This document shows, one piece after another, positions 1-10,309 of a stretch of 10,309 nt of DNA (positions within the stretch are counted from its first letter, which is position 1; the number at the start of each line of letters is the position of its first letter). The notes below the pieces were generated by a model. It was given only the letters and a program-made list of their open reading frames with translations, ran no database searches and had not been told where the DNA came from. The translations under genes were made by a program, and so were the position numbers. The stretch comes from Candidatus Helarchaeota archaeon (GTDB taxonomy: Archaea > Asgardarchaeota > Lokiarchaeia > Helarchaeales > RDOG01): the NCBI GenBank assembly GCA_029838215.1, contig JALGVI010000096.1:1-10309 (forward strand). Reading direction: 5' to 3'.

Positions 1-1637
1 AATTCCCAGATCTTTGGATTTTCATATTTTGAAAGATTTTCTTCTGCAAATTTCTTAATGCTTTCTTCGACGTCCTTCGTTAGTTCGACGTTCTCTTGGA
101 GTTGTATCACGGCTTTAACGATTTCACTGCCGGGTCGTTTTGGGTTTTCGACACCGATGATGGCACAAATTTGTATGTCGGGATGTTTTGTCAACACGTC
201 TTCGACATGAACGCTGTATACTTTGTAGCCGCTCACGTTCAACATGTCTTTTGTCCTGTCAACGATTTTGATATAACCATCCTCATCCATTTCGCCGACA
301 TCACCGGTATGTAACCAGCCGTCCTTGTCAATTGTTTGAGCCGTGGCTTCCGGCTTTTTATAATAGCCGCTCGTTATTTGTGGTCCTTTCACAAGGATCT
401 CGCCACGTTCTCCGATTCCAACAGCTTCTCCAGTCTCGATGTTTACTAACTTGATTTCAGTATTCGGAAGTGGCAAGCCGACGGTTCCAATTTTTTTAGG
501 GCCAAATCGTGGATTCGCTGTTACTAATGGAGATGCCTCAGTCATTCCATACACTTCAAGAACCTTTCCTTGAGCGTTCATGTGCTCTTCAAATTCACGA
601 ATGCTTTCGGCAGGGAATGGAGCCGCACCGCTCACGTAGATTGAAATATTATCCAAGACTTCATTAGGAATTGTCAGGGATTTTGGATTGCTTTTTATCA
701 TCATGTATAGCGTCGGAACGTTCGCAATAACAGTCGGTTTGTGTTCAATGATTTTCTTTATGATGAGATTCGTATCTCTGGGATTGGGAATCAAGATTTG
801 CGTTCCTGAAACGAAGGTAGCCACGTCCATTACTAGAGTCCCTGCAATGTGGAAATATGGGAACGCTGAACAGGCTATTTCGCTTTCGAATTGAGCCCAT
901 TCTTTCCATTGTAATATATTTGCATGAATATTTTTATGCGTGAGTTCGGTACCCTTCGGGCGCCCCGTGGTTCCGCCAGTGTAGTATAAAAAAGCTAAAT
1001 CTTTCTCAGGATCGATTTTTACAGGTTTTACATTTATCGGTGTGGATAGGGTGTCAACGAATTTCACGATTTTTTTTCCGGGAAAAGGAGTAACCTTACC
1101 AGATGGAATTTTCTTAAAAAGCTTTGCTAAAAACACTTTAAGCGTTCCAAAACCCATGAAAGTTGAGAGATCGATAGGAATAACGCATTCAAGTTTCGGT
1201 ACTTTATCCAAAACGGGTTTCAAGAGCTTTGCGTAAATTATATTCAATGTCACGATAAATTTTGCCTCGCTGTCATTTAATTGATAAACGACTTCATCTT
1301 GACTTAGCAGGGGCGAGCAACCCGAGCAAACGCCTCCCGCCAATAGTGTTCCGAAGTGAGTAATTAAGTATTGAGGTGAGTTTACAATGTTTATCGCAAC
1401 GACGTCCCCTTTTTTCAGTCCATTCTCCTGTAAAAAAGTAGCAAAACGCTGTATGTATTCCCATAATTCAGAATAGGGAATTGTTCGGTTCATAAAAATG
1501 CAGGCAGCTTTATCAGGATATTTCTGCAATGCTCGAGCAAACACTTCACCTAAATTCTCATATTTTAAATCAAGAGTTGGTGCTAAATGCTTATCATAAG
1601 ATTTTGTCCAAAATTTTGATGCTATTTTCTCCGCCAT
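1..1637 (-). CDS. fadD: Long-chain-fatty-acid--CoA ligase (AMP-binding/ANL family, FadD/LcfA-like); 3' end truncated by the window edge
   Basis: Not in the ORF track because the stop lies outside the window. I translated it by hand from ATG at 1637: MAEKIASKFWTKSYDKHLAPT..., open for 545 codons to ...ENPKIWE at position 3. It has the AMP-binding P-loop YYTGGTTGRPKG (951-986), FPYFHIAG, SGAAPF, YGMTE (537-551), GEILVKGPQ, GWLHTGD (TGD at 300-308) and IVDRTKDMLNVSGYKVY. An AGAGG SD-like sequence lies upstream. Chain-length specificity is inferred from family resemblance only. Confidence 0.93.
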   Translation of the reverse strand, partial: MAEKIASKFWTKSYDKHLAPTLDLKYENLGEVFARALQKYPDKAACIFMNRTIPYSELWEYIQRFATFLQENGLKKGDVVAINIVNSPQYLITHFGTLLAGGVCSGCSPLLSQDEVVYQLNDSEAKFIVTLNIIYAKLLKPVLDKVPKLECVIPIDLSTFMGFGTLKVFLAKLFKKIPSGKVTPFPGKKIVKFVDTLSTPINVKPVKIDPEKDLAFLYYTGGTTGRPKGTELTHKNIHANILQWKEWAQFESEIACSAFPYFHIAGTLVMDVATFVSGTQILIPNPRDTNLIIKKIIEHKPTVIANVPTLYMMIKSNPKSLTIPNEVLDNISIYVSGAAPFPAESIREFEEHMNAQGKVLEVYGMTEASPLVTANPRFGPKKIGTVGLPLPNTEIKLVNIETGEAVGIGERGEILVKGPQITSGYYKKPEATAQTIDKDGWLHTGDVGEMDEDGYIKIVDRTKDMLNVSGYKVYSVHVEDVLTKHPDIQICAIIGVENPKRPGSEIVKAVIQLQENVELTKDVEESIKKFAEENLSKYENPKIWE

Positions 1638-1788: not shown

Positions 1789-3189
1789 ATGGTTGAAAAG
1801 GATCTCACGCTCCTTGCTCCTGAGGAAATATTTGATGCATTTACGGAAATCATTTCGGGTTTTAGTTCAACCGACCTATATGCAGACATCCTGTATGATT
1901 GCACGAGTTCATTGAGAATTCACAAGACAAAATCGAAAGAAACCATTACCGTAAATCCAAAAACGGCAGGCATTGTGATTCGCGCGTATGGAGATGTTTG
2001 GAGTGAGATAGCAGTAACGTCTCTTGGAGATCTTGCAGACGCGGCACGCAGGCTTCAAGAAAGATCAAGCAAGCAAAAGCTTCCTTTAACATCTCAAGAC
2101 CCGTATAAATTAAACGAAAAAATAACTCCTAAAATCCCCCACGATTCTATCTCTTTGGAGGAAAAATTATCCGAAATTCAAGAACGTTTTAAACTCATGG
2201 AGAAACATGATGAACGGATCATAAATCCGATAATTGCTTATTCCGAAAGCCAAGTGGAACGAATACTCGTGAACACGGAAGGGGCAGAATTGCGACAAGT
2301 CATACCGCGGACGAGAATTTTTTTGCAACCAATTGCAAGAGAAGGAGCTCGTACTGATTTTGATTATTATTCAGAGGGTGGTGAAGTAGGAGTTGAGATT
2401 CTAAAGAACTTATCCGCTGAAATTATCGAAACTGCAGTTAAAAACTCAATACAGATGTTAAAAGCGGAACACCCTCCTGCTGGGACATTTCCCGTAGTTT
2501 TAGATCCTGACATGACAGGATTGGTTGCACACGAAAGCTTCGGACACGGATTAGAAGCAGATCAAGTCCTTCGTGATAGATCCTACTTAAAGCCATATTT
2601 TCAAAAACAAGTGGCTTCAGAAATAACAAATATTTTTGACGGACCTACTGTTGAAGGTCAAGTCGGAACTTTTTTCTTTGATGATGAAGGCATCCCTGCA
2701 CAAACCACTCAACTCGTGCAAGACGGCATTCTCGTAAATTTCTTGCACACACGAGAAACGGCAGCAATGTTAAATGCCAAGCCTCGGGGTAACGGACGCA
2801 GGGAATCATTTGCACATAATGTTTACGTGAGAATGACAAATACCTATTTTCAGGCAGGAAATCATGACCTTGAAGAATTATTTGAAGGCATCAAGAAAGG
2901 AGTATTTCTAGTCAGAGGATATTTTGGAATGGAAGACCCACTTGGGGGAGGCATGCAATGCACGTCGAAAAAGGGATTTTTGATCGAGAATGGAGAGATA
3001 TCGAAATTACTCGGTCCTGTAACACTCTCGGGGAAAGTACTTGATCTCTTACAAAGCATTGATGCCATTAGTAAGGAAACCATAGAACTCCGTAGCGGCA
3101 TGTGCGGAAAAGGATACGAGGATTTCGTTCCGGTTTCATCAGGAGGACCGCACGTGCGAGCACAACACGCCATTGTCGGACCAGGGTGA
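1789..3189 (+). CDS. tldD: TldD/PmbA family metalloprotease, catalytic TldD subunit (466 aa)
   Basis: HExxxH metal motif in VAHESFGHGLEAD, FFDDEGIP, GNGRRES and VRMTNTY. The C-terminal GMCGKG carries the conserved TldD metal-ligand Cys. Length is typical. Confidence 0.93.
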   Translation: MVEKDLTLLAPEEIFDAFTEIISGFSSTDLYADILYDCTSSLRIHKTKSKETITVNPKTAGIVIRAYGDVWSEIAVTSLGDLADAARRLQERSSKQKLPLTSQDPYKLNEKITPKIPHDSISLEEKLSEIQERFKLMEKHDERIINPIIAYSESQVERILVNTEGAELRQVIPRTRIFLQPIAREGARTDFDYYSEGGEVGVEILKNLSAEIIETAVKNSIQMLKAEHPPAGTFPVVLDPDMTGLVAHESFGHGLEADQVLRDRSYLKPYFQKQVASEITNIFDGPTVEGQVGTFFFDDEGIPAQTTQLVQDGILVNFLHTRETAAMLNAKPRGNGRRESFAHNVYVRMTNTYFQAGNHDLEELFEGIKKGVFLVRGYFGMEDPLGGGMQCTSKKGFLIENGEISKLLGPVTLSGKVLDLLQSIDAISKETIELRSGMCGKGYEDFVPVSSGGPHVRAQHAIVGPG

Positions 3190-3194
3190 GAAAA

Positions 3195-4523
3195 ATGCAA
3201 GAAAAATTGAAATTAATTGAAGAAAGACTCAAGCAAGCCAACGTGCAAGAACATGATGTATACTTGATCCAGGAGACGCTCTACGAAAATCAGTATTTAA
3301 AAAACAAGATTCAAATTTCACGGAGTGCCACGACGACAAGTTACTTCCTGCGAGTTCTTGAACAAAAAAAAGATGCAACGGGAATTGGAATCGTCCGAAC
3401 CAATGCCTTTAGTCCATCCCAAATTGACGCCGCAATAAACACGGCAAAAAAATTGGCAAGAATCAATAAATCCCCAAAATATGACTTGCCTGATTCAAAT
3501 CAATCATACTCGAACGTGAAAGTGGCAGAAACTCAAGTCATGGACGATCCAGAGCAGGTACTTCAAGATAAATCAGAAGAATTACTAAATGAGATCTCAA
3601 ATCAGAAAGCAGTGGTTCCGACTTTTGGACGTTTACGATTACATCATCAGAAAAAATATCTGATAAATGCAAAAGGATTGAATTTAAATTTAGAAAAAAC
3701 TTTCTTTTATTTAGAACTCTCCTTAAAATCTCAGTCCAGAGGAGACATCGCAGAATATTGGGGAAAAGGATATCATAAAAACACGAACGACCTGAATTTT
3801 TCCGAAATAATTCCTGAATGGGCACGATTTTCTCAGGATAGTCTCAAGGCCAAACACCCGATACCAATGAAGGAATTAATTGTCGTATTCCCCCCAAGAG
3901 TTCTTCGAGAGGCTCTCGTGCCAGTCATTGGATTCCACGCATCAGGAAGGGCACGACACGAGCACATGAGCCAATTCCAAGAGAATAAAAAGGTTGGCAT
4001 GGAAAAAATCACCGTGTCTGATGACGGATTGCTGGAAAATGCACTGCAGACCAGTCCATGGGACGGAGAAGGAAATCCTTGCGGAAAGACAACCATTATA
4101 GAAAATGGCGTGTTTAAAAATTACATCTACGACCAGACATATGCGAGGTTAGAAAATGCAAAATCAACAGGAAATGGACTCAGAACAAGTGAAGGAAGCA
4201 TCATCAACGCACCCAGTAATTTCATAATTTCTCCAGGAACCGTGTCCGATGAAGAGATCATTGAAGAAATAAAAAACGGAATTTACGTGATGGAATTCTC
4301 CTGGCTGAACCCATCAGAAGTGACGGGAACATTTGGAGCTGAAATTCGTCTTGCTTACAAGATAGAAGATGGGCGGATTACAAAACCCATAAAAGGAGGA
4401 AATATCGGCGGAAACATCCTTGAAATGATCAAAAATATAAAACATGTTTCAAAAGAACGTAAATTGGTGGGAAATGTCTTATTCCCCTTGATGTCATTCG
4501 AGAATCTGATATTATCCACCTGA
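3195..4523 (+). CDS. tldE: TldE/PmbA family protein, non-catalytic partner subunit (442 aa)
   Basis: Same fold motifs as TldD (DDG...SPWDGEGNP, IIENGVFKNYIYD, STGNG, PSNFIISPG, GTFGAE, PIKGGNIGGN) but no HExxxH. I moved the start from 3102 to ATG 3195 (MQEKLK): SD-like GGTGA at 3185-3189 contains the tldD stop, and the first 31 aa of the long ORF overlap tldD. Confidence 0.88.
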   Translation: MQEKLKLIEERLKQANVQEHDVYLIQETLYENQYLKNKIQISRSATTTSYFLRVLEQKKDATGIGIVRTNAFSPSQIDAAINTAKKLARINKSPKYDLPDSNQSYSNVKVAETQVMDDPEQVLQDKSEELLNEISNQKAVVPTFGRLRLHHQKKYLINAKGLNLNLEKTFFYLELSLKSQSRGDIAEYWGKGYHKNTNDLNFSEIIPEWARFSQDSLKAKHPIPMKELIVVFPPRVLREALVPVIGFHASGRARHEHMSQFQENKKVGMEKITVSDDGLLENALQTSPWDGEGNPCGKTTIIENGVFKNYIYDQTYARLENAKSTGNGLRTSEGSIINAPSNFIISPGTVSDEEIIEEIKNGIYVMEFSWLNPSEVTGTFGAEIRLAYKIEDGRITKPIKGGNIGGNILEMIKNIKHVSKERKLVGNVLFPLMSFENLILST

Positions 4524-4550: not shown

Positions 4551-4560
4551 AATTTTTTTA
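4551..4560 (+). terminator. Candidate oligo-T terminator for tldDE, overlapping the vapC stop codon
   Basis: T7 run at 4553-4559, 30 bp after the tldE stop. Archaeal intrinsic terminators are oligo-T tracts. Confidence 0.35.
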
Positions 4561-4989
4561 ACAGAAATCATTATCTGAAAGAGAATTTAATGAAGAAATT
4601 GCCACTTTTTTAACCAGTTTTTCATCTGCAGTTATTATTGGTGCATTCAATGAAAAGCCTAATCCAATATAAGAAGAATCATAGATGGTAATCCCATATT
4701 GAAATGCTATTTTTATGGCTTGAGAAAACCACTTTTCGTAGTTAAATATTTTCAATTGAATGTCTTCCAGATTTTCGATGGCTTTCTTGACATCAAGCTC
4801 TCCAAATTCAGGATTATAACGTAGAGCATTTGCAACTTCATAAAAAAGCAAAGATGGGGCACAAAGCAAGATTTTTTGTTTCAAGAATTTTTCCTTGAGG
4901 AGAACTGCCTTATCAGTGTTTTTTTCAATATTAAACCATTTTATGACCACAGAAGCGTCGACAATGATTATTTGCGGAGTGTTCTCCAA
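4558..4989 (-). CDS. vapC: VapC-type PIN-domain toxin (ribonuclease), about 143 aa
   Basis: All four PIN acidic positions are present: IIVDASVVIKWF, FYEVANAL, ITIYDSSY, IITADEKL. Preferred start is TTG at 4989, 10 nt downstream of GGAGGAGG (5000-5007). It overlaps the antitoxin 3' end by 22 bp. Confidence 0.9.
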   Translation of the reverse strand: MENTPQIIIVDASVVIKWFNIEKNTDKAVLLKEKFLKQKILLCAPSLLFYEVANALRYNPEFGELDVKKAIENLEDIQLKIFNYEKWFSQAIKIAFQYGITIYDSSYIGLGFSLNAPIITADEKLVKKVAISSLNSLSDNDFC

Positions 4990-5222
4990 TGCTTTATTTC
5001 CTCCTCCCCAGACCATGAACCAGAGGTTTTTGTTCGTAATGTATCAATGTTACTTGATGCTTTTAGAGCCTTTTTAACATCAAAACTAGTATGTCTGAAA
5101 AATTCTTCCAAGATAAGTCTTTTTTCTACAGCTTCCCGCAGAATTTCAGACCAATTTATGTCTTTATATTGCTTCATTTTCTTTTTCAACCTTGAATCTA
5201 TCTTAAAACTAACGACTTCCAT
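4968..5222 (-). CDS. vapB: VapB-type antitoxin with N-terminal ribbon-helix-helix (CopG/MetJ-like) domain, 84 aa
   Basis: Alternating beta-strand VVSFKID followed by helices LKKKMKQY / INWSEILREAVEKRL (archaeal RHH antitoxin pattern). Charged C-tail SGEEEIKHWR. Lies directly upstream of and overlaps a PIN gene. Confidence 0.8.
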   Translation of the reverse strand: MEVVSFKIDSRLKKKMKQYKDINWSEILREAVEKRLILEEFFRHTSFDVKKALKASSNIDTLRTKTSGSWSGEEEIKHWRTLRK

Positions 5223-5350: not shown

Positions 5351-6052
5351 ATGTTAATGATGAACGAGAAAGACAGGATTATAGAAATATACAGGCGGCT
5401 TAAGAAGATCCACGATGTCCCGACATTTCGCAAGTGTTCTTCATTTGAGGCTCTGATATTAACAATTCTTTCACAGAACACGAATGACAATAACCGCGAT
5501 AACGCGTACGAACAGTTATTGGAAACATTCGAGAAGATAACGCCCGAAATTCTTGCAGGGGCAGAGGTCGAAACAATCCGAGATGCAATCAAGGTTGCGG
5601 GATTGCACAACCAGAAATCAGCCCGACTCAAGAACGTATCGCAAGTTATTCTGGACGAATATGATGGTTCTGTAGATGCGATATTAGAACGACCATTAGG
5701 AGAAGCGCGTGAAATTCTCGTTGGTTTAAAAGGTGTCGGTTATAAAACGGCAGATATTCTGCTTTTATTTCATGCTGGATATCTGACGTTGCCAGTCGAT
5801 ACTCACATCACGCGGTTGAGCAAGCGTCTTGGATTTGCACCCGTTACCGCCAAGTATGAAGAGATTCGGAAGAATTTTCAAAAATACCTTGAACGATCCT
5901 TATTGATTTATAAGGAATTTCATTTGCTTTTAATAGAACACGGGAGGGCTACTTGTAAAGCGATAAAACCGGCGTGTTCGACTTGCATTCTCGAAGATCT
6001 CTGCCCAAAAATAATTACAAAAAAGCCAAAAAAATCAAAAAAGAAAAGTTGA
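5351..6052 (+). CDS. nth: Endonuclease III (HhH-GPD DNA glycosylase/AP lyase with 4Fe-4S cluster)
   Basis: LILTILSQNTND, HhH motif LKGVGYKTAD with the catalytic Lys, PVDTH with the catalytic Asp, and FCL motif CKAIKPACSTCILEDLC (C-x6-C-x2-C-x5-C). The true start may be 5357 or 5360. Confidence 0.95.
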   Translation: MLMMNEKDRIIEIYRRLKKIHDVPTFRKCSSFEALILTILSQNTNDNNRDNAYEQLLETFEKITPEILAGAEVETIRDAIKVAGLHNQKSARLKNVSQVILDEYDGSVDAILERPLGEAREILVGLKGVGYKTADILLLFHAGYLTLPVDTHITRLSKRLGFAPVTAKYEEIRKNFQKYLERSLLIYKEFHLLLIEHGRATCKAIKPACSTCILEDLCPKIITKKPKKSKKKS

Positions 6053-6106: not shown

Positions 6107-6970
6107 GTGGTGGATTTTTTGATTAGAGAGCCCAGATATTCAGGGTCTTGGTATCCCGGAACAAAAAAAGAATTAGAAAGTCAATTAGAAAACTTCTTCA
6201 AATCTCATAAATTAGGACCCCGGATCACGCTTGAAGTGAATGATTCAGGGGATAGGAAGATCGTGTCCTTGGTCTCACCGCATGCAGGTTACGTGTATTC
6301 TGGTGCAATTGCGGCACACGGATTTGCCCAGCTTGCCTTGGATGGTCGACCCGATCTTTTCATAATAATAGGAATTAATCATCGTTCCTACACTTCAAAT
6401 CCTGCTTCAATACAGACGAAGGGTGGTTGGAAGACTCCATTAGGGATTGCACCAATTGCTGAAGAAATAGCAAGACAAATTTCGGAGTCAAATGAGAAAA
6501 TTCATAATGATCCAGGAACACATGCGGCAGAGCATTCTTTGGAGCTCCAACTTCCATTTCTCCAATATATTTATGGAGCGGAGATCAAGATCATTCCCAT
6601 CATCATTTCGATTCCCACGCTTGCAAACTGCCGAATGATTGGAACTACGGTTGCGGGAGCCATCCAAGATGAAAATGCCGTGATCATAGCGTCCACGGAT
6701 TTCACGCATTTTGAGGATGGAAAAACCGCAAAAGAACAAGATCAAAAAGCCCTTGATGCAATTCTCCAATTGGATGAAGAATTACTCATTGAAAATGTCA
6801 AAAACCACGGGATATCAATGTGCGGATATGGTTCTACGGCTGCAACAATCGTGGCATCAAAAAATTTGGGTGCGAAGCATGCAGAATTACTAAAATATGG
6901 GAATTCAGGAGATATCACTGGAGATTATTCAAATGTCGTGGGTTACGGAAGTTTAAAAATCTTCAAATAA
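6107..6970 (+). CDS. amrB: MEMO1 family protein (AmmeMemoRadiSam system protein B), 287 aa
   Basis: Motifs SGSWYP, PHAGYVYSG, IGINH, WKTPLG, EHSLELQLPFLQ, ASTDFTH, SMCGYG and VVGYGS. GTG start at 6107 or 6110. Confidence 0.93.
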   Translation: MVDFLIREPRYSGSWYPGTKKELESQLENFFKSHKLGPRITLEVNDSGDRKIVSLVSPHAGYVYSGAIAAHGFAQLALDGRPDLFIIIGINHRSYTSNPASIQTKGGWKTPLGIAPIAEEIARQISESNEKIHNDPGTHAAEHSLELQLPFLQYIYGAEIKIIPIIISIPTLANCRMIGTTVAGAIQDENAVIIASTDFTHFEDGKTAKEQDQKALDAILQLDEELLIENVKNHGISMCGYGSTAATIVASKNLGAKHAELLKYGNSGDITGDYSNVVGYGSLKIFK

Positions 6971-7175: not shown

Positions 7176-8078
7176 ATGAAAATTTTCAGAATGCTTTTAC
7201 TAAAAGATTACGTGACGTTGGGGAATTGCGTATGTGGGGCTCTTTCAATTTGTTTTTCAATATTAGGATTATTCACACCTCGAGATCTACCGTGGGGGTT
7301 TTGGTTTTCTTCAGCGTTCATTTTCTTGGGAATGGCATTTGACCTTGCAGATGGTTGGGTTGCACGGAAATTGAATCAAGCAAATGAAATCGGAGTTCAA
7401 ATAGATTCGCTTTCGGATGAAATTACTTTTGTCGTTGCTCCTGGAATCCTCGTTTTTTCATACTTTGGTATCTATTGGAATCCATATACACCTCCAAATC
7501 CGCTTTTCTTGATTCACATGTTGTTAATCATTTTCGGTGTTTGTTTCTTGATCGCTTGTGGAACAACAAGATTGGCTTGGTTTAACGTGGAAGACACCGA
7601 AGGGTATCAGGGTTTACCAACGCCAATGACAGCACTAATGGTGGTTGCACTATATTGGAATGATCTTTTTGCAAGGTATAATGGATTACCGGGTTCGGAT
7701 ATAACGGGTATTTATCTTTATCTAAATATTTTCTTTCTGTCCTTTAGCCTTCCAGTAGTGCTTCTCTTCTTCCTGATTCTATTTGGGTTTTGTAACATCA
7801 GTGATTATTTGCGGTATAGTGATAGAATAAGAAAAAAAACCGGTTTCATCCTCCCACTCATAATCATCACCAGTGCAGTAGGCATATTTTTCGGTCTGAC
7901 TAATTTTGGAATTGCTACAATTAATGCACTGAATCCCGCTATTACATTAGAGTTCAAAGTTTTTTCATTATTCGTTCACATTTTGGTATTCTTATTCATA
8001 TGTGCAGGATTGGGATATATAGGGTTGGGATTCAAGACATACTTGAACCAACGGAAGAATCAAAATTCAGAAAAATAA
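7176..8078 (+). CDS. pssA: CDP-alcohol phosphatidyltransferase, PssA type II (archaetidylserine/phosphatidylserine synthase-like), 300 aa membrane protein
   Basis: CDP-AP signature DLADGWVARKLNQANEIGVQIDSLSD. PssA-subfamily features: TLGN at the N-terminus, RLAWFNV and YQGLPTP. Multiple hydrophobic segments. The head-group substrate is inferred. Confidence 0.83.
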   Translation: MKIFRMLLLKDYVTLGNCVCGALSICFSILGLFTPRDLPWGFWFSSAFIFLGMAFDLADGWVARKLNQANEIGVQIDSLSDEITFVVAPGILVFSYFGIYWNPYTPPNPLFLIHMLLIIFGVCFLIACGTTRLAWFNVEDTEGYQGLPTPMTALMVVALYWNDLFARYNGLPGSDITGIYLYLNIFFLSFSLPVVLLFFLILFGFCNISDYLRYSDRIRKKTGFILPLIIITSAVGIFFGLTNFGIATINALNPAITLEFKVFSLFVHILVFLFICAGLGYIGLGFKTYLNQRKNQNSEK

Positions 8079-8135: not shown

Positions 8136-8858
8136 TTATTTAAAACGCGTGAAAATTTCTCTCAGGTTTAGCTTGTTTTCATATATGGCTTTACCAGTTA
8201 CAGCCGCCGCGCATCCAATACGTTCCAGATTCTCGAGGTCTTCAATGCCTGCAATTCCTCCTGCTGCAATTATGGGAATTTTCGTTTTTTCCACCATTTT
8301 TTTCGTGATTTCAAGTTGTTGTTGGGAAATGCCATCCAGTGTTCCATCAGCTTCAGAATGCGTGAATAAAATCCAGCCGGCATTTTTTTCTTCGAGTAAT
8401 CTTGCATATTCAAAAATATTCCACGAGGATGCTTCTTTCCATCCCTTAATTAGAACGGTTTCCCCTCGATAATCTACAGCGACACAGACGCGTTGTTTTC
8501 CGATATGATCGACCAAATCTTTGACGAAATCGGGTTCTTTAATGGCTTTCGTTCCGATGATTATCCGCTCAATGCCCCAAGAACATAATTTTTCGGCTTT
8601 TTCGAGGCTTCGGATTCCCCCTCCGACCTGAATCTTCATGTCAATGGAAGACGCGATCTTCTTTATGATTTCGAGATTTTCACCGGATCCAAATGCACCA
8701 TTCAAATCAACAATGTGAAGCTCAGTTGCACCTTGTTCTTGAAAATAAAAAGCAGCATCGAGAGGATTTTCGTGATAGACCGTGACCCTGTCTTCCATCC
8801 CTTTAAAAAGACGCACGCATTTCCTGTCTTTAATGTCAATGGCAGGAATAACTATCAT
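8136..8858 (-). CDS. hisA: ProFAR isomerase (phosphoribosylformimino-5-aminoimidazole carboxamide ribotide isomerase), 240 aa
   Basis: MIVIPAIDIKDRKCVRL (Asp8), LHIVDLNGA, IQVGGGIRS, IIGTKA, VAVD, KGW, ADGTLDG, IIAAGGIAGIEDL and TGKAIYE: the canonical (beta/alpha)8 HisA pattern. SD-like GAAGGATGA at 8862-8870. Confidence 0.95.
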   Translation of the reverse strand: MIVIPAIDIKDRKCVRLFKGMEDRVTVYHENPLDAAFYFQEQGATELHIVDLNGAFGSGENLEIIKKIASSIDMKIQVGGGIRSLEKAEKLCSWGIERIIIGTKAIKEPDFVKDLVDHIGKQRVCVAVDYRGETVLIKGWKEASSWNIFEYARLLEEKNAGWILFTHSEADGTLDGISQQQLEITKKMVEKTKIPIIAAGGIAGIEDLENLERIGCAAAVTGKAIYENKLNLREIFTRFK

Positions 8859-8885: not shown

Positions 8886-10019
8886 CTATACCTTTTCTAT
8901 TGGAAAATTCTTGATAGTTTCTCCAATGAATTCCATCTGGGATTTTGAAATGCTGGGATTGATGGGGATTGAAAGAACTTGTCGTGTTGCGTATTCGGAA
9001 ACGGGAAATGACCCGGGTCCTAGATCATAAAGTTCTCGGTATAGCGGCATGAGATGAAGAGGCGTGGAATAATAAACACCCGTTCCTATATTGTTCTTTT
9101 GCATGTACACGATAAAAGGATCTCTTTTTTCCACTTCCTCGAATTTCACGGTGTATAGATACCAAGAATGTTTTACATGAGCCTCAACAATGGGCGGGTT
9201 GTACGGTCTTTTTTCGATCTCGTTGATAATTTTGGTTAAATAATCCGCATTTTGAGTTCGAACCTTGATAAAATCATCTAGTCGTTTCAACTGGACAGTC
9301 CCGATTGCGGCAATAATTTCAGACATTCTGAAGTTATGGCCGAGTCGCGTGGTCAGGTAATTTTCAGATTCACCATGATTACGAATTTGGCGAATGACAT
9401 CGGCGAGTTCGCCATCATTGGTCGTTATCATGCCGCCTTCACCTGTCGTCATGTTCTTGCTTGGATAGAAGCTGAAGCATCCTGCATTTCCAAGTGAACC
9501 AACTTTTTTACCTTTATATTCCGCTCCGTGTGCTTGACAGGCATCTTCAATTACGGCGATGTCTTTCTTTTCTGCCAGTTCCAAGATGGGATCCATGTTG
9601 ACGGGATGACCATACAAGTGAACAGGCATGATTGCACGAGTCTTATCTGAGATGACCTTTTTTACATTATCCACGTCAAGGTTAAACGTCATTGGATTGA
9701 CATCAGCGAATTTTACTCGTGCGCCGGCGTGAATAACCATTGAAGCACTGGCAACGAATGAAAAAGTAGGGACAATGACTTCTTGATCCTTTTTTAGATC
9801 AAGAGCAAGTAAGCAGGCATGCAATGCAGCAGAACCCGAGTTTACTGCTATTGCATGTTTTACTCCGATATAATTGGCAAAAGCTTCTTCGAATTTCAGC
9901 GTTTCGGGACCCATATTTCTTTTTTCGGTCAATGTATTGCTTTCTAGAACCGCTTTTACGGCTTTCACTTCATCGGAACCAATTATCGGGAGATTTATTG
10001 GGATGAACTTTGAACTCAT
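8886..10019 (-). CDS. DegT/DnrJ/EryC1/StrS family PLP-dependent (nucleotide-sugar) aminotransferase, 377 aa
   Basis: AVNSGSAALH, VIVPTFSFVASA, IMPVHLYGHP, IEDACQAHGA, SFYPSKNMTTGEGGMITT (PLP-binding Lys), GHNFRMSEIIAAIG and LSIPINP. Confidence 0.93.
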   Translation of the reverse strand: MSSKFIPINLPIIGSDEVKAVKAVLESNTLTEKRNMGPETLKFEEAFANYIGVKHAIAVNSGSAALHACLLALDLKKDQEVIVPTFSFVASASMVIHAGARVKFADVNPMTFNLDVDNVKKVISDKTRAIMPVHLYGHPVNMDPILELAEKKDIAVIEDACQAHGAEYKGKKVGSLGNAGCFSFYPSKNMTTGEGGMITTNDGELADVIRQIRNHGESENYLTTRLGHNFRMSEIIAAIGTVQLKRLDDFIKVRTQNADYLTKIINEIEKRPYNPPIVEAHVKHSWYLYTVKFEEVEKRDPFIVYMQKNNIGTGVYYSTPLHLMPLYRELYDLGPGSFPVSEYATRQVLSIPINPSISKSQMEFIGETIKNFPIEKV

Positions 10020-10067
10020 GGGAATTGCTTCCTAAAGCAAACTATCATTCAAGCAGAATTGCTTTTT

Positions 10068-10083
10068 CATATAAACAAAAAAA
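10068..10083 (-). promoter_or_regulatory. Candidate T7 terminator of the upstream gene next to a candidate TATA box (TTTATATG) for the aminotransferase-hisA unit
   Basis: Minus strand has a T7 tract at 10077-10083 followed by TTTATATG at 10068-10075, about 50 bp upstream of the ATG at 10019. Confidence 0.3.
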
Positions 10084-10156
10084 TCTTTTAAAAATCTATT
10101 GCAATTTTTGCTTGAATTTTAAACTTGAAAAGCACGGATTAGCGATTTTTAGCCAA

Positions 10157-10309
10157 TCAAGAGAACTTTTCAAGCAATGGAGCGACTTTTTTTGCGATTA
10201 TTTCTAAATACATGGAAATTAATCCAATATTTGATTTCGGATTTGATATTGAGATGATGACGGTATGCTTGTCGATTGGTGCAACCATTGTCGTGATATT
10301 CTCGGCATT
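10157..10309 (-). CDS. C-terminal 50 aa of a probable Roadblock/LC7 (MglB/LAMTOR-like) domain protein; 5' end outside the window
   Basis: Not in the ORF track. Hand translation of the minus strand from 10309 gives NAENITTMVAPIDKHTVIISISNPKSNIGLISMYLEIIAKKVAPLLEKFS*, with TGA at 10157-10159. The pattern is two hydrophobic beta-strands, then the N-[IL]-G-L-[IV] motif, then an amphipathic C-terminal helix, which matches the second half of Roadblock/LC7 domains. Only about half of the domain is visible. Confidence 0.7.
   Translation of the reverse strand, partial: NAENITTMVAPIDKHTVIISISNPKSNIGLISMYLEIIAKKVAPLLEKFS

Follow-up and report, generated by a model that had tools for sequence, protein, structure and literature searches.

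A contig-truncated Asgard archaeal gene whose relatives encode zinc-ribbon/Roadblock fusion proteins

The right edge of the window, the whole 10,309-nucleotide stretch of DNA that was analyzed, carries on its minus strand the 3' end of a gene of the Roadblock/LC7 superfamily. The explanation that best accounts for the observations as a whole, to which we give a probability of about 0.85, is that a gene for an Asgard zinc-ribbon/linker/Roadblock protein has been cut by the end of the contig, that its product is a predicted platform for a Rag-like GTPase, and that a NERD-like gene lies beyond the edge. As judged by sequence, the organism is a Helarchaeota-type Asgard archaeon. Roadblock proteins and Rag-like GTPases of Asgard archaea attract study as forerunners of the Ragulator/Rag signaling of eukaryotes.

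An Open Minus-strand Frame Reaches the End of the Contig

Direct translation of window positions 10157-10309 on the minus strand gave 50 residues and a stop, ending in ...TTMVAPIDKHTVIISISNPKSNIGLISMYLEIIAKKVAPLLEKFS*. This reproduced exactly the frame quoted in an earlier note that had been made from the letters of this DNA. The frame stays open up to the final base of the window. Because the window is an entire contig (G000:C76:1-10309, where G000 is the window's own genome), the gene has been cut by the assembly. At this edge the mechanical list of open reading frames contains only a 43-residue piece that starts with ATG or a 50-residue frame that is open at its 5' side, and for this reason the gene was missed by the ORF track. 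Its recognition corrects an annotation gap: sequence at the contig edge that appears non-coding holds the end of a conserved gene, and what is expected past that edge can be stated. The coordinates of the features are collected in Table 1.

Table 1. Features of the window and of the loci compared with it
Feature	Position	Strand	Basis or remark
AMP-binding enzyme	window 3-1637	-	cut by left contig end
TldD/PmbA pair	window 1789-3189, 3102-4523	+	mechanical ORFs overlap by 88 bp
PIN-domain (VapC-like) gene	window 4558-5016	-	
Endonuclease III	window 5351-6052	+	
Memo-like protein	window 6107-6970	+	
CDP-alcohol phosphatidyltransferase	window 7176-8078	+	
HisA	window 8136-8858	-	PF00977
DegT/DnrJ/EryC1 aminotransferase	window 8886..10019	-	Pfam PF01041, E 2e-124
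Spacer to aminotransferase gene	window 10020..10156	-	137 bp
Stop codon TGA	window 10159-10157 (10157..10159)	-	direct translation
Final 50 codons of contig-truncated zinc-ribbon/disordered-linker/Roadblock gene (predicted)	window 10160..10309	-	translation, ortholog alignment, HMM 50.9 bits
Predicted C-terminal helix α3, after PKSNIGLI turn	window 10169..10228	-	P0002 AF2 helix 225-244, pLDDT 88-91
Predicted Roadblock strand β5 (TVIISIS)	window 10244..10264	-	homology to P0002 AF2 strand 213-219
Predicted Roadblock strand β4 (TTMVAP)	window 10277..10294	-	homology to P0002 AF2 strand 203-208
Antisense frame opposite Roadblock domain	L003:1134-1646	-	
Antisense frame opposite Roadblock domain	L005:1336-1716	+	
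Antisense frame opposite Roadblock domain	L006:1598-1933	+	
Antisense frame opposite Roadblock domain	L007:1496-1909	+	
Antisense frame opposite Roadblock domain	L008:1649-2050	+	
NERD-like gene	L003:73-783	+	
NERD-like gene	L030:7140-7853		
NERD-like gene	L032:7139-7852		
NERD-like genes	L035-L063		ORFs of these loci
Extra Rag-like GTPase of G027	L028:3062-4564	-	
Extra Rag-like GTPase of G027	L028:12574-14037	+	

The Fragment Belongs to a Family of Zinc-ribbon Fusion Proteins

An HMM was built from the C-terminal domains of seven orthologs with the window sequence left out, which makes the comparison non-circular. Against it the translated fragment scored 50.9 bits (E 6e-18), with alignment to positions 79-125 of the 127 in the model. 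The best of 1000 shuffled fragments scored 9.6 bits with the same HMM, showing that the match is far above chance. With the fragment as query, open frames of 241-266 residues were retrieved from the same GTDB family and order (E 2.8e-12 to 1.4e-6), and the reverse search from P0002, the closest ortholog, recovered the window at 5.8e-11. The fragment aligns to the extreme C terminus of every homolog, with 38-60% identity to the short-form orthologs of its own order and about 32-35% identity to the long forms of a sister family (f4). No protein in a collection of 5.8 billion was more than ~60% identical to the fragment in a profile search, indicating that a full-length copy of this very gene is absent from the collection. 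An exact 30-mer from the contig edge had 0 matches in metagenome_contigs and 0 in genome_contigs.

The full-length orthologs (P0002-P0008) have 239-367 residues, the short form typical of the window's order having ~240. They begin with a zinc ribbon of the form CxxC-x10-CxxC, whose four cysteines are shared without exception by 24 sequences; every ortholog also matches Pfam zinc-ribbon families. The zinc ribbon is followed by a low-complexity linker of ~90 residues in the window's order and ~200 residues in the sister family, most of which has pLDDT < 50 in an AF2 model of P0002. The C-terminal domain comprises about 120 residues and has a Roadblock/LC7 fold (below). Judged from these orthologs, the full protein of the window would be a fusion of ~240 residues in which a zinc ribbon is joined by a disordered linker of ~90 residues to a Roadblock domain of ~120 residues. 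The earlier note was right about the superfamily, but the orthologs point to the C-terminal domain of a ~240-residue zinc-ribbon fusion instead of a plain Roadblock protein of ~120 residues. By comparison with the orthologs, an estimated 190 or so codons are missing past the contig end; in the window's genome these are predicted to encode the zinc ribbon, the linker, and the opening 60% of the Roadblock domain.

The linker of the short forms contains a conserved hydrophobic motif, S/T-L-F-x-x-L (P0002 residues 62-76), which forms the sole helix predicted within this disordered region. It may be a binding motif.

Sequence and Fold Evidence for the Roadblock Domain

A Pfam search with the 50-residue fragment alone, which covers about the last third of the domain, gave no Roadblock match at E ≤ 1. 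The fragment's match to RsgA_GTPase, 13.9 bits where the cutoff is 30, was treated as chance. Among the orthologs, three passed the Robl_LC7 model (PF03259) with 40.7, 34.0, and 31.5 bits (cutoff 23) and two passed the clan relative MAPKK1_Int (PF08923) with 25.7 bits (cutoff 25). The comparison with PF03259 that the earlier note had proposed is negative for the fragment itself, and five of its seven orthologs lie above threshold for one or the other of these Roadblock-clan models. At E 0.1 the closest ortholog, P0002, reached neither Robl_LC7 nor MAPKK1_Int; P0008, the most distant, scored 16.4 bits, under the cutoff.

A profile of the domain matched the solved Roadblock chains 7F8M (3.6e-9), 7YH1 (2.6e-8), and 9JUE (1.2e-5) in the PDB, nearly end to end. 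The top PDB profile matches in this search were to the "Cake" designed repeat proteins and are an artefact, nine 4-bit matches on a 20-residue stretch having been summed.

The AF2 model of P0002 has the secondary structure order H-E-E-H-E-E-E-H (α-β-β-α-β-β-β-α) over residues 122-244, with block pLDDT values of 63-91. The modeled topology agrees with the α-β-β-α-β-β-β(-α) arrangement of the Roadblock fold. The top Foldseek matches of the model were Prometheoarchaeum Roadblock3, MglB, and a Thorarchaeota Roadblock protein (E 7e-9 to 1e-7, target TM 0.72-0.78). Taken with the Pfam matches of the orthologs and the PDB profile matches, the AF2 model and the Foldseek results bear out the original suggestion that the end of a Roadblock/LC7-superfamily gene lies at this edge.

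In the alignment, residue i of the fragment corresponds to residue 197+i of P0002. On this mapping the window would hold just β4, β5, and the last helix of the domain (Table 1), and the "strand-strand-NxGL-helix" pattern read from the letters in the earlier note falls on β4-β5-α3 of the P0002 model. The turn that precedes the helix has the motif P..(S/T)..G.I, in which Pro-221, Gly-226, and Ile-228 (P0002 numbering) are identical in every member of sets of 8 and of 24 family sequences. All three, the family-invariant residues of this stretch, are retained in the window's frame.

A NERD-like Gene Is Predicted beyond the Contig Edge

Locus neighbors were scored with HMMs made from sequences of this analysis. 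Within the window's order a gene for a NERD-like protein of ~240 residues lies directly upstream of the zinc-ribbon/Roadblock gene, and co-oriented with it, in all seven testable loci. The order NERD-like gene, zinc-ribbon/Roadblock gene, DegT gene is found in G001 and in two Helarchaeota-labeled MAGs, the last two genes of this series being arranged as in the window.

The NERD-like protein matches Pfam NERD in 16 of 18 members and carries an invariant E...EID...IDAKxW signature. It models as a PD-(D/E)xK nuclease at a mean pLDDT of 78, and Foldseek matched the model to AF1548, Can2, McrC, and R2 endonuclease domains; a sequence-level relative was not found in the PDB. The protein has a length of about 240-270 residues and a helical N-terminal region.

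The gene occurs in 200 of 251 genomes of the phylum, mostly once, and in 79 of the 89 high-quality ones. It was not found in a search of the window's own genome, and for a gene this widespread such an absence fits a location in the assembly gap beside the contig. Throughout the class the NERD-like gene flanks the zinc-ribbon/Roadblock gene, in a co-oriented upstream position in the window's order and in a convergent downstream position in f4. Given how widespread the gene is, the adjacency may be no more than a gene order that has been retained. A complex prediction for the NERD-like and zinc-ribbon/Roadblock proteins of G001, run without controls, gave a score of 0.00 and is evidence neither way.

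From these loci we predict that the remainder of the gene lies beyond the contig edge, followed by a gene for a NERD-like PD-(D/E)xK nuclease and not by a GTPase gene. The expectation in the earlier note of a GTPase or longin/roadblock cluster just past the edge is not supported for this lineage: the three closest full loci (G001 and the two Helarchaeota-labeled MAGs) have the NERD-like gene upstream and no GTPase gene within 8-10 kb.

The same loci bear on a different reading of the fragment, as the C terminus of a simple stand-alone Roadblock/MglB-like protein (about 120-140 residues) with a GTPase or a roadblock/longin cluster past the edge. Stand-alone Roadblock paralogs of 125-150 residues are common in these genomes, and some are found in multi-gene clusters (L011, L016). 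However, such paralogs match the fragment weakly (E 0.008-0.1, 18-41% identity), whereas the strong matches (37-60% identity) all come from zinc-ribbon fusion proteins of 233-269 residues. The window also shares its DegT neighbor with the fusion-protein loci of G001 and the two Helarchaeota-labeled MAGs, which have no GTPase gene within 8-10 kb. We consider it quite improbable.

Integrity and Coding Strand of the Frame

A further possibility is that the fragment is a decayed remnant and not an intact gene truncated by the assembly. The upstream portion lies out of view beyond the contig end, and the N-terminal part was not found on other contigs of this 94%-complete assembly, which yielded just unrelated zinc ribbons and weak Roadblock paralogs. 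Against decay, all 50 codons are open, the invariant Pro, Gly, and Ile are kept, and the HMM score is high; moreover, the frame reaches exactly to the contig end, as would be expected of an assembly break. A pseudogene is, on balance, very improbable.

The two strands were compared across orthologs in a codon-anchored manner. None of the seven sequences, the window included, has a stop within the sense frame, whose mean identity to the window is 0.44; for the antisense frame the identity is 0.34. The earlier note had named as fatal to its own reading the outcome that the plus-strand ORF from 10212 is the conserved gene. This alternative, in which the minus-strand frame would be open by accident, can be dismissed. 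The antisense frame is open in the window and in four of six orthologs compared, but two orthologs each carry three stops in it and its conservation is lower; the Pfam, PDB, and fold matches are on the sense frame. The minus-strand frame is, on this comparative evidence, the gene.

Antisense open frames of 105-170 residues lie opposite the Roadblock domain in most orthologs (Table 1). As protein they are unconserved, and in two orthologs they are broken within the final 44 codons. Such long antisense frames probably arise from AT-rich codon usage.

A Rag-like GTPase Gene Adjoins the Family in a Sister Lineage

The adjacency to a GTPase gene does hold one taxonomic family away, in the sister family f4. 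The gene order there is Rag-like GTPase, zinc-ribbon/Roadblock, and then the convergent NERD-like gene. Of 29 f4 loci, 27 have a Gtr1/RagA-type GTPase gene immediately upstream in the same orientation; the other two are cut by contig ends, so that the count over testable loci is 27 of 27. The GTPase is also upstream of the zinc-ribbon/Roadblock gene in one complete genome. The f4 GTPase matches Gtr1_RagA and Arf and aligns over its full length with PDB 8YL2 (2.9e-91, 309 bits). This gene pairing makes the LokiRagO-type Rag GTPase of the adjoining upstream gene the very probable partner of the f4 zinc-ribbon/Roadblock protein.

The window's own genome encodes nine Rag-like GTPase matches. The best of them has 31% identity to the f4 partner and scores 115 bits against 8YL2, compared with 309 bits for the f4 protein. 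The best Rag-like GTPase matches of G000, G001, G002, and G005 have no adjoining Roadblock or NERD-like gene. The window's lineage illustrates that the link to a neighbor can be lost while the protein is kept, and this guides the choice of orthologs for biochemistry.

In Tran et al. (2024, PMC10933270), GTPase genes of MK-D1 are described as generally not in operons with Roadblock genes, and the matching of GTPases to regulators from genome layout is described as difficult. The zinc-ribbon/Roadblock family is unusual in that, in one lineage, its GTPase neighbor is fixed.

In one genome, G027, two more Rag-like GTPases of about 490-500 residues are encoded within 5 kb of the GTPase/Roadblock pair (Table 1). 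Both have N-terminal extensions of ~180 residues, one with a faint Folliculin match.

Comparison with Known Roadblock Systems

MglB is a Roadblock-fold GAP of the Ras-like GTPase MglA, and in the working model a Roadblock dimer acts on one small GTPase. The Thermus (1J3W/3T1R) and Myxococcus (6HJM) MglB structures share with the ortholog model the Roadblock fold and its C-terminal helix (target TM 0.74-0.78). The sequence identity is 12-14%, and MglB has neither the zinc ribbon nor the long linker. A gene for an MglA-type GTPase adjoins none of the zinc-ribbon/Roadblock loci examined, the linked GTPase of f4 being Gtr1_RagA/Arf-like. The resemblance to MglB is therefore at the level of the fold.

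Among the components of Ragulator, LAMTOR2/LAMTOR3 (p14/MP1) correspond to the MAPKK1_Int model (PF08923), which two of the orthologs pass marginally (25.7 versus 25). Foldseek matched the ortholog model to 5Y3A, 1VEU, and the C-terminal domains of Rag proteins (RagA/Gtr1). On the evidence, the likeness to Ragulator/Rag is confined to fold and family and does not extend to a five-subunit Ragulator-like set, a LAMTOR1-like anchor, or a lysosome-type membrane; a genomic link to a Rag-type GTPase is present in f4 and absent in the window's lineage.

The stand-alone Roadblock proteins of Asgard archaea, which share the fold and the phylum, gave the best profile and structure matches to the zinc-ribbon/Roadblock family. 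Solved structures are those of a Thorarchaeota protein (7F8M) and of Prometheoarchaeum MK-D1 Roadblock (7YH1), Roadblock2 (9JQ8), and Roadblock3 (9JUE). These proteins have a single domain of 110-130 residues with 14-22% identity to the ortholog model. Unlike them, the zinc-ribbon/Roadblock family adds an N-terminal zinc ribbon and a disordered linker of 90-200 residues. The Asgard stand-alone proteins form dimers that resemble those of Ragulator, according to Tran et al. (2024, PMC10933270). A second difference is that the zinc-ribbon/Roadblock gene is fixed beside a Rag-like GTPase gene in one family, in contrast to the MK-D1 genes as described in the same paper (PMC10933270).

Distribution of the Family

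The profile search of the 5.8-billion-protein collection found at least 326 relatives. Their labels comprise Promethearchaeota/Lokiarchaeia and Hel-, Hod-, Thor-, Hermod-, Odin-, and Heimdall-archaeota MAGs, and the closest named relatives of the G001 protein carry Helarchaeota labels. Some relatives already carry such names as "roadblock/LC7 domain-containing," "zinc-ribbon domain-containing," and "predicted regulator of Ras-like GTPase activity." Within the literature searched, no paper on the zinc-ribbon/Roadblock architecture or on 8YL2 was found. The family is known from database annotation and is uncharacterized, and the gene in the window is a truncated further member of it.

Across the 251 genomes of the phylum, the long architecture (open frames of 313-430 residues, E 1e-35 or better) is almost confined to the window's class. 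In the sister family f4, 53 of 54 sampled genomes have a match at E 1e-12. A 4.4-Mb single-contig genome of family f5 is without the long form. Outside the window's class, stand-alone Roadblocks of ~130 residues were the sole matches.

Proposed Mechanism

From the gene's identity, the architecture and fold of its family, and the conserved gene order we infer how the protein may act. Roadblock-superfamily proteins form homo- or heterodimeric platforms by means of helix α2 and the edge strand, and the C-terminal Roadblock domain here probably dimerizes as well. As with MglB and the Roadblock domains of Ragulator/Rag, such a dimer would bind and regulate a Rag-like small GTPase, an idea supported by the f4 gene pair. 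The flexibly tethered zinc ribbon would bring in a further partner or surface. The window's lineage has lost the gene link to the GTPase, and the protein would there work with one of about nine Rag-like GTPases whose genes lie at other sites in the genome.

A more elaborate proposal is that the zinc-ribbon/linker/Roadblock protein is a dedicated adaptor or regulator of LokiRagO-type Rag GTPases in Asgard archaea of the Lokiarchaeia class, that its adjacency to the NERD-like gene marks a nucleic-acid-processing module switched by a GTPase, and that the window's lineage has been rewired to another Rag-like paralog. The Roadblock/NERD-like adjacency has been kept through changes of gene order and orientation between the two lineages. 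We regard this version as unlikely, and the contig-cut fusion gene with its predicted GTPase platform as the preferred reading.

Downstream Genes and Remaining Contig Content

The Roadblock gene end, the DegT gene, and the HisA gene are all co-oriented. The ORF coordinates confirm the earlier placement of the frame 137 bp upstream of, and in the same orientation as, an aminotransferase-hisA unit. On its minus strand the spacer contains runs of T5 and T7, followed by TTTATAT ~50 nt upstream of the DegT ATG. The T runs may be a terminator, and TTTATAT may be a separate TATA-box promoter; these putative elements suggest that DegT is transcribed separately. Alignment of the spacer with three relatives revealed no conserved element.

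The remaining content of the contig is ordinary (Table 1). In other loci, stand-alone Roadblock paralogs of 130-140 residues are followed by a conserved gene of ~150 residues and by small genes, forming a separate recurring cluster (L011:1204-2085, L016:1027-1911).
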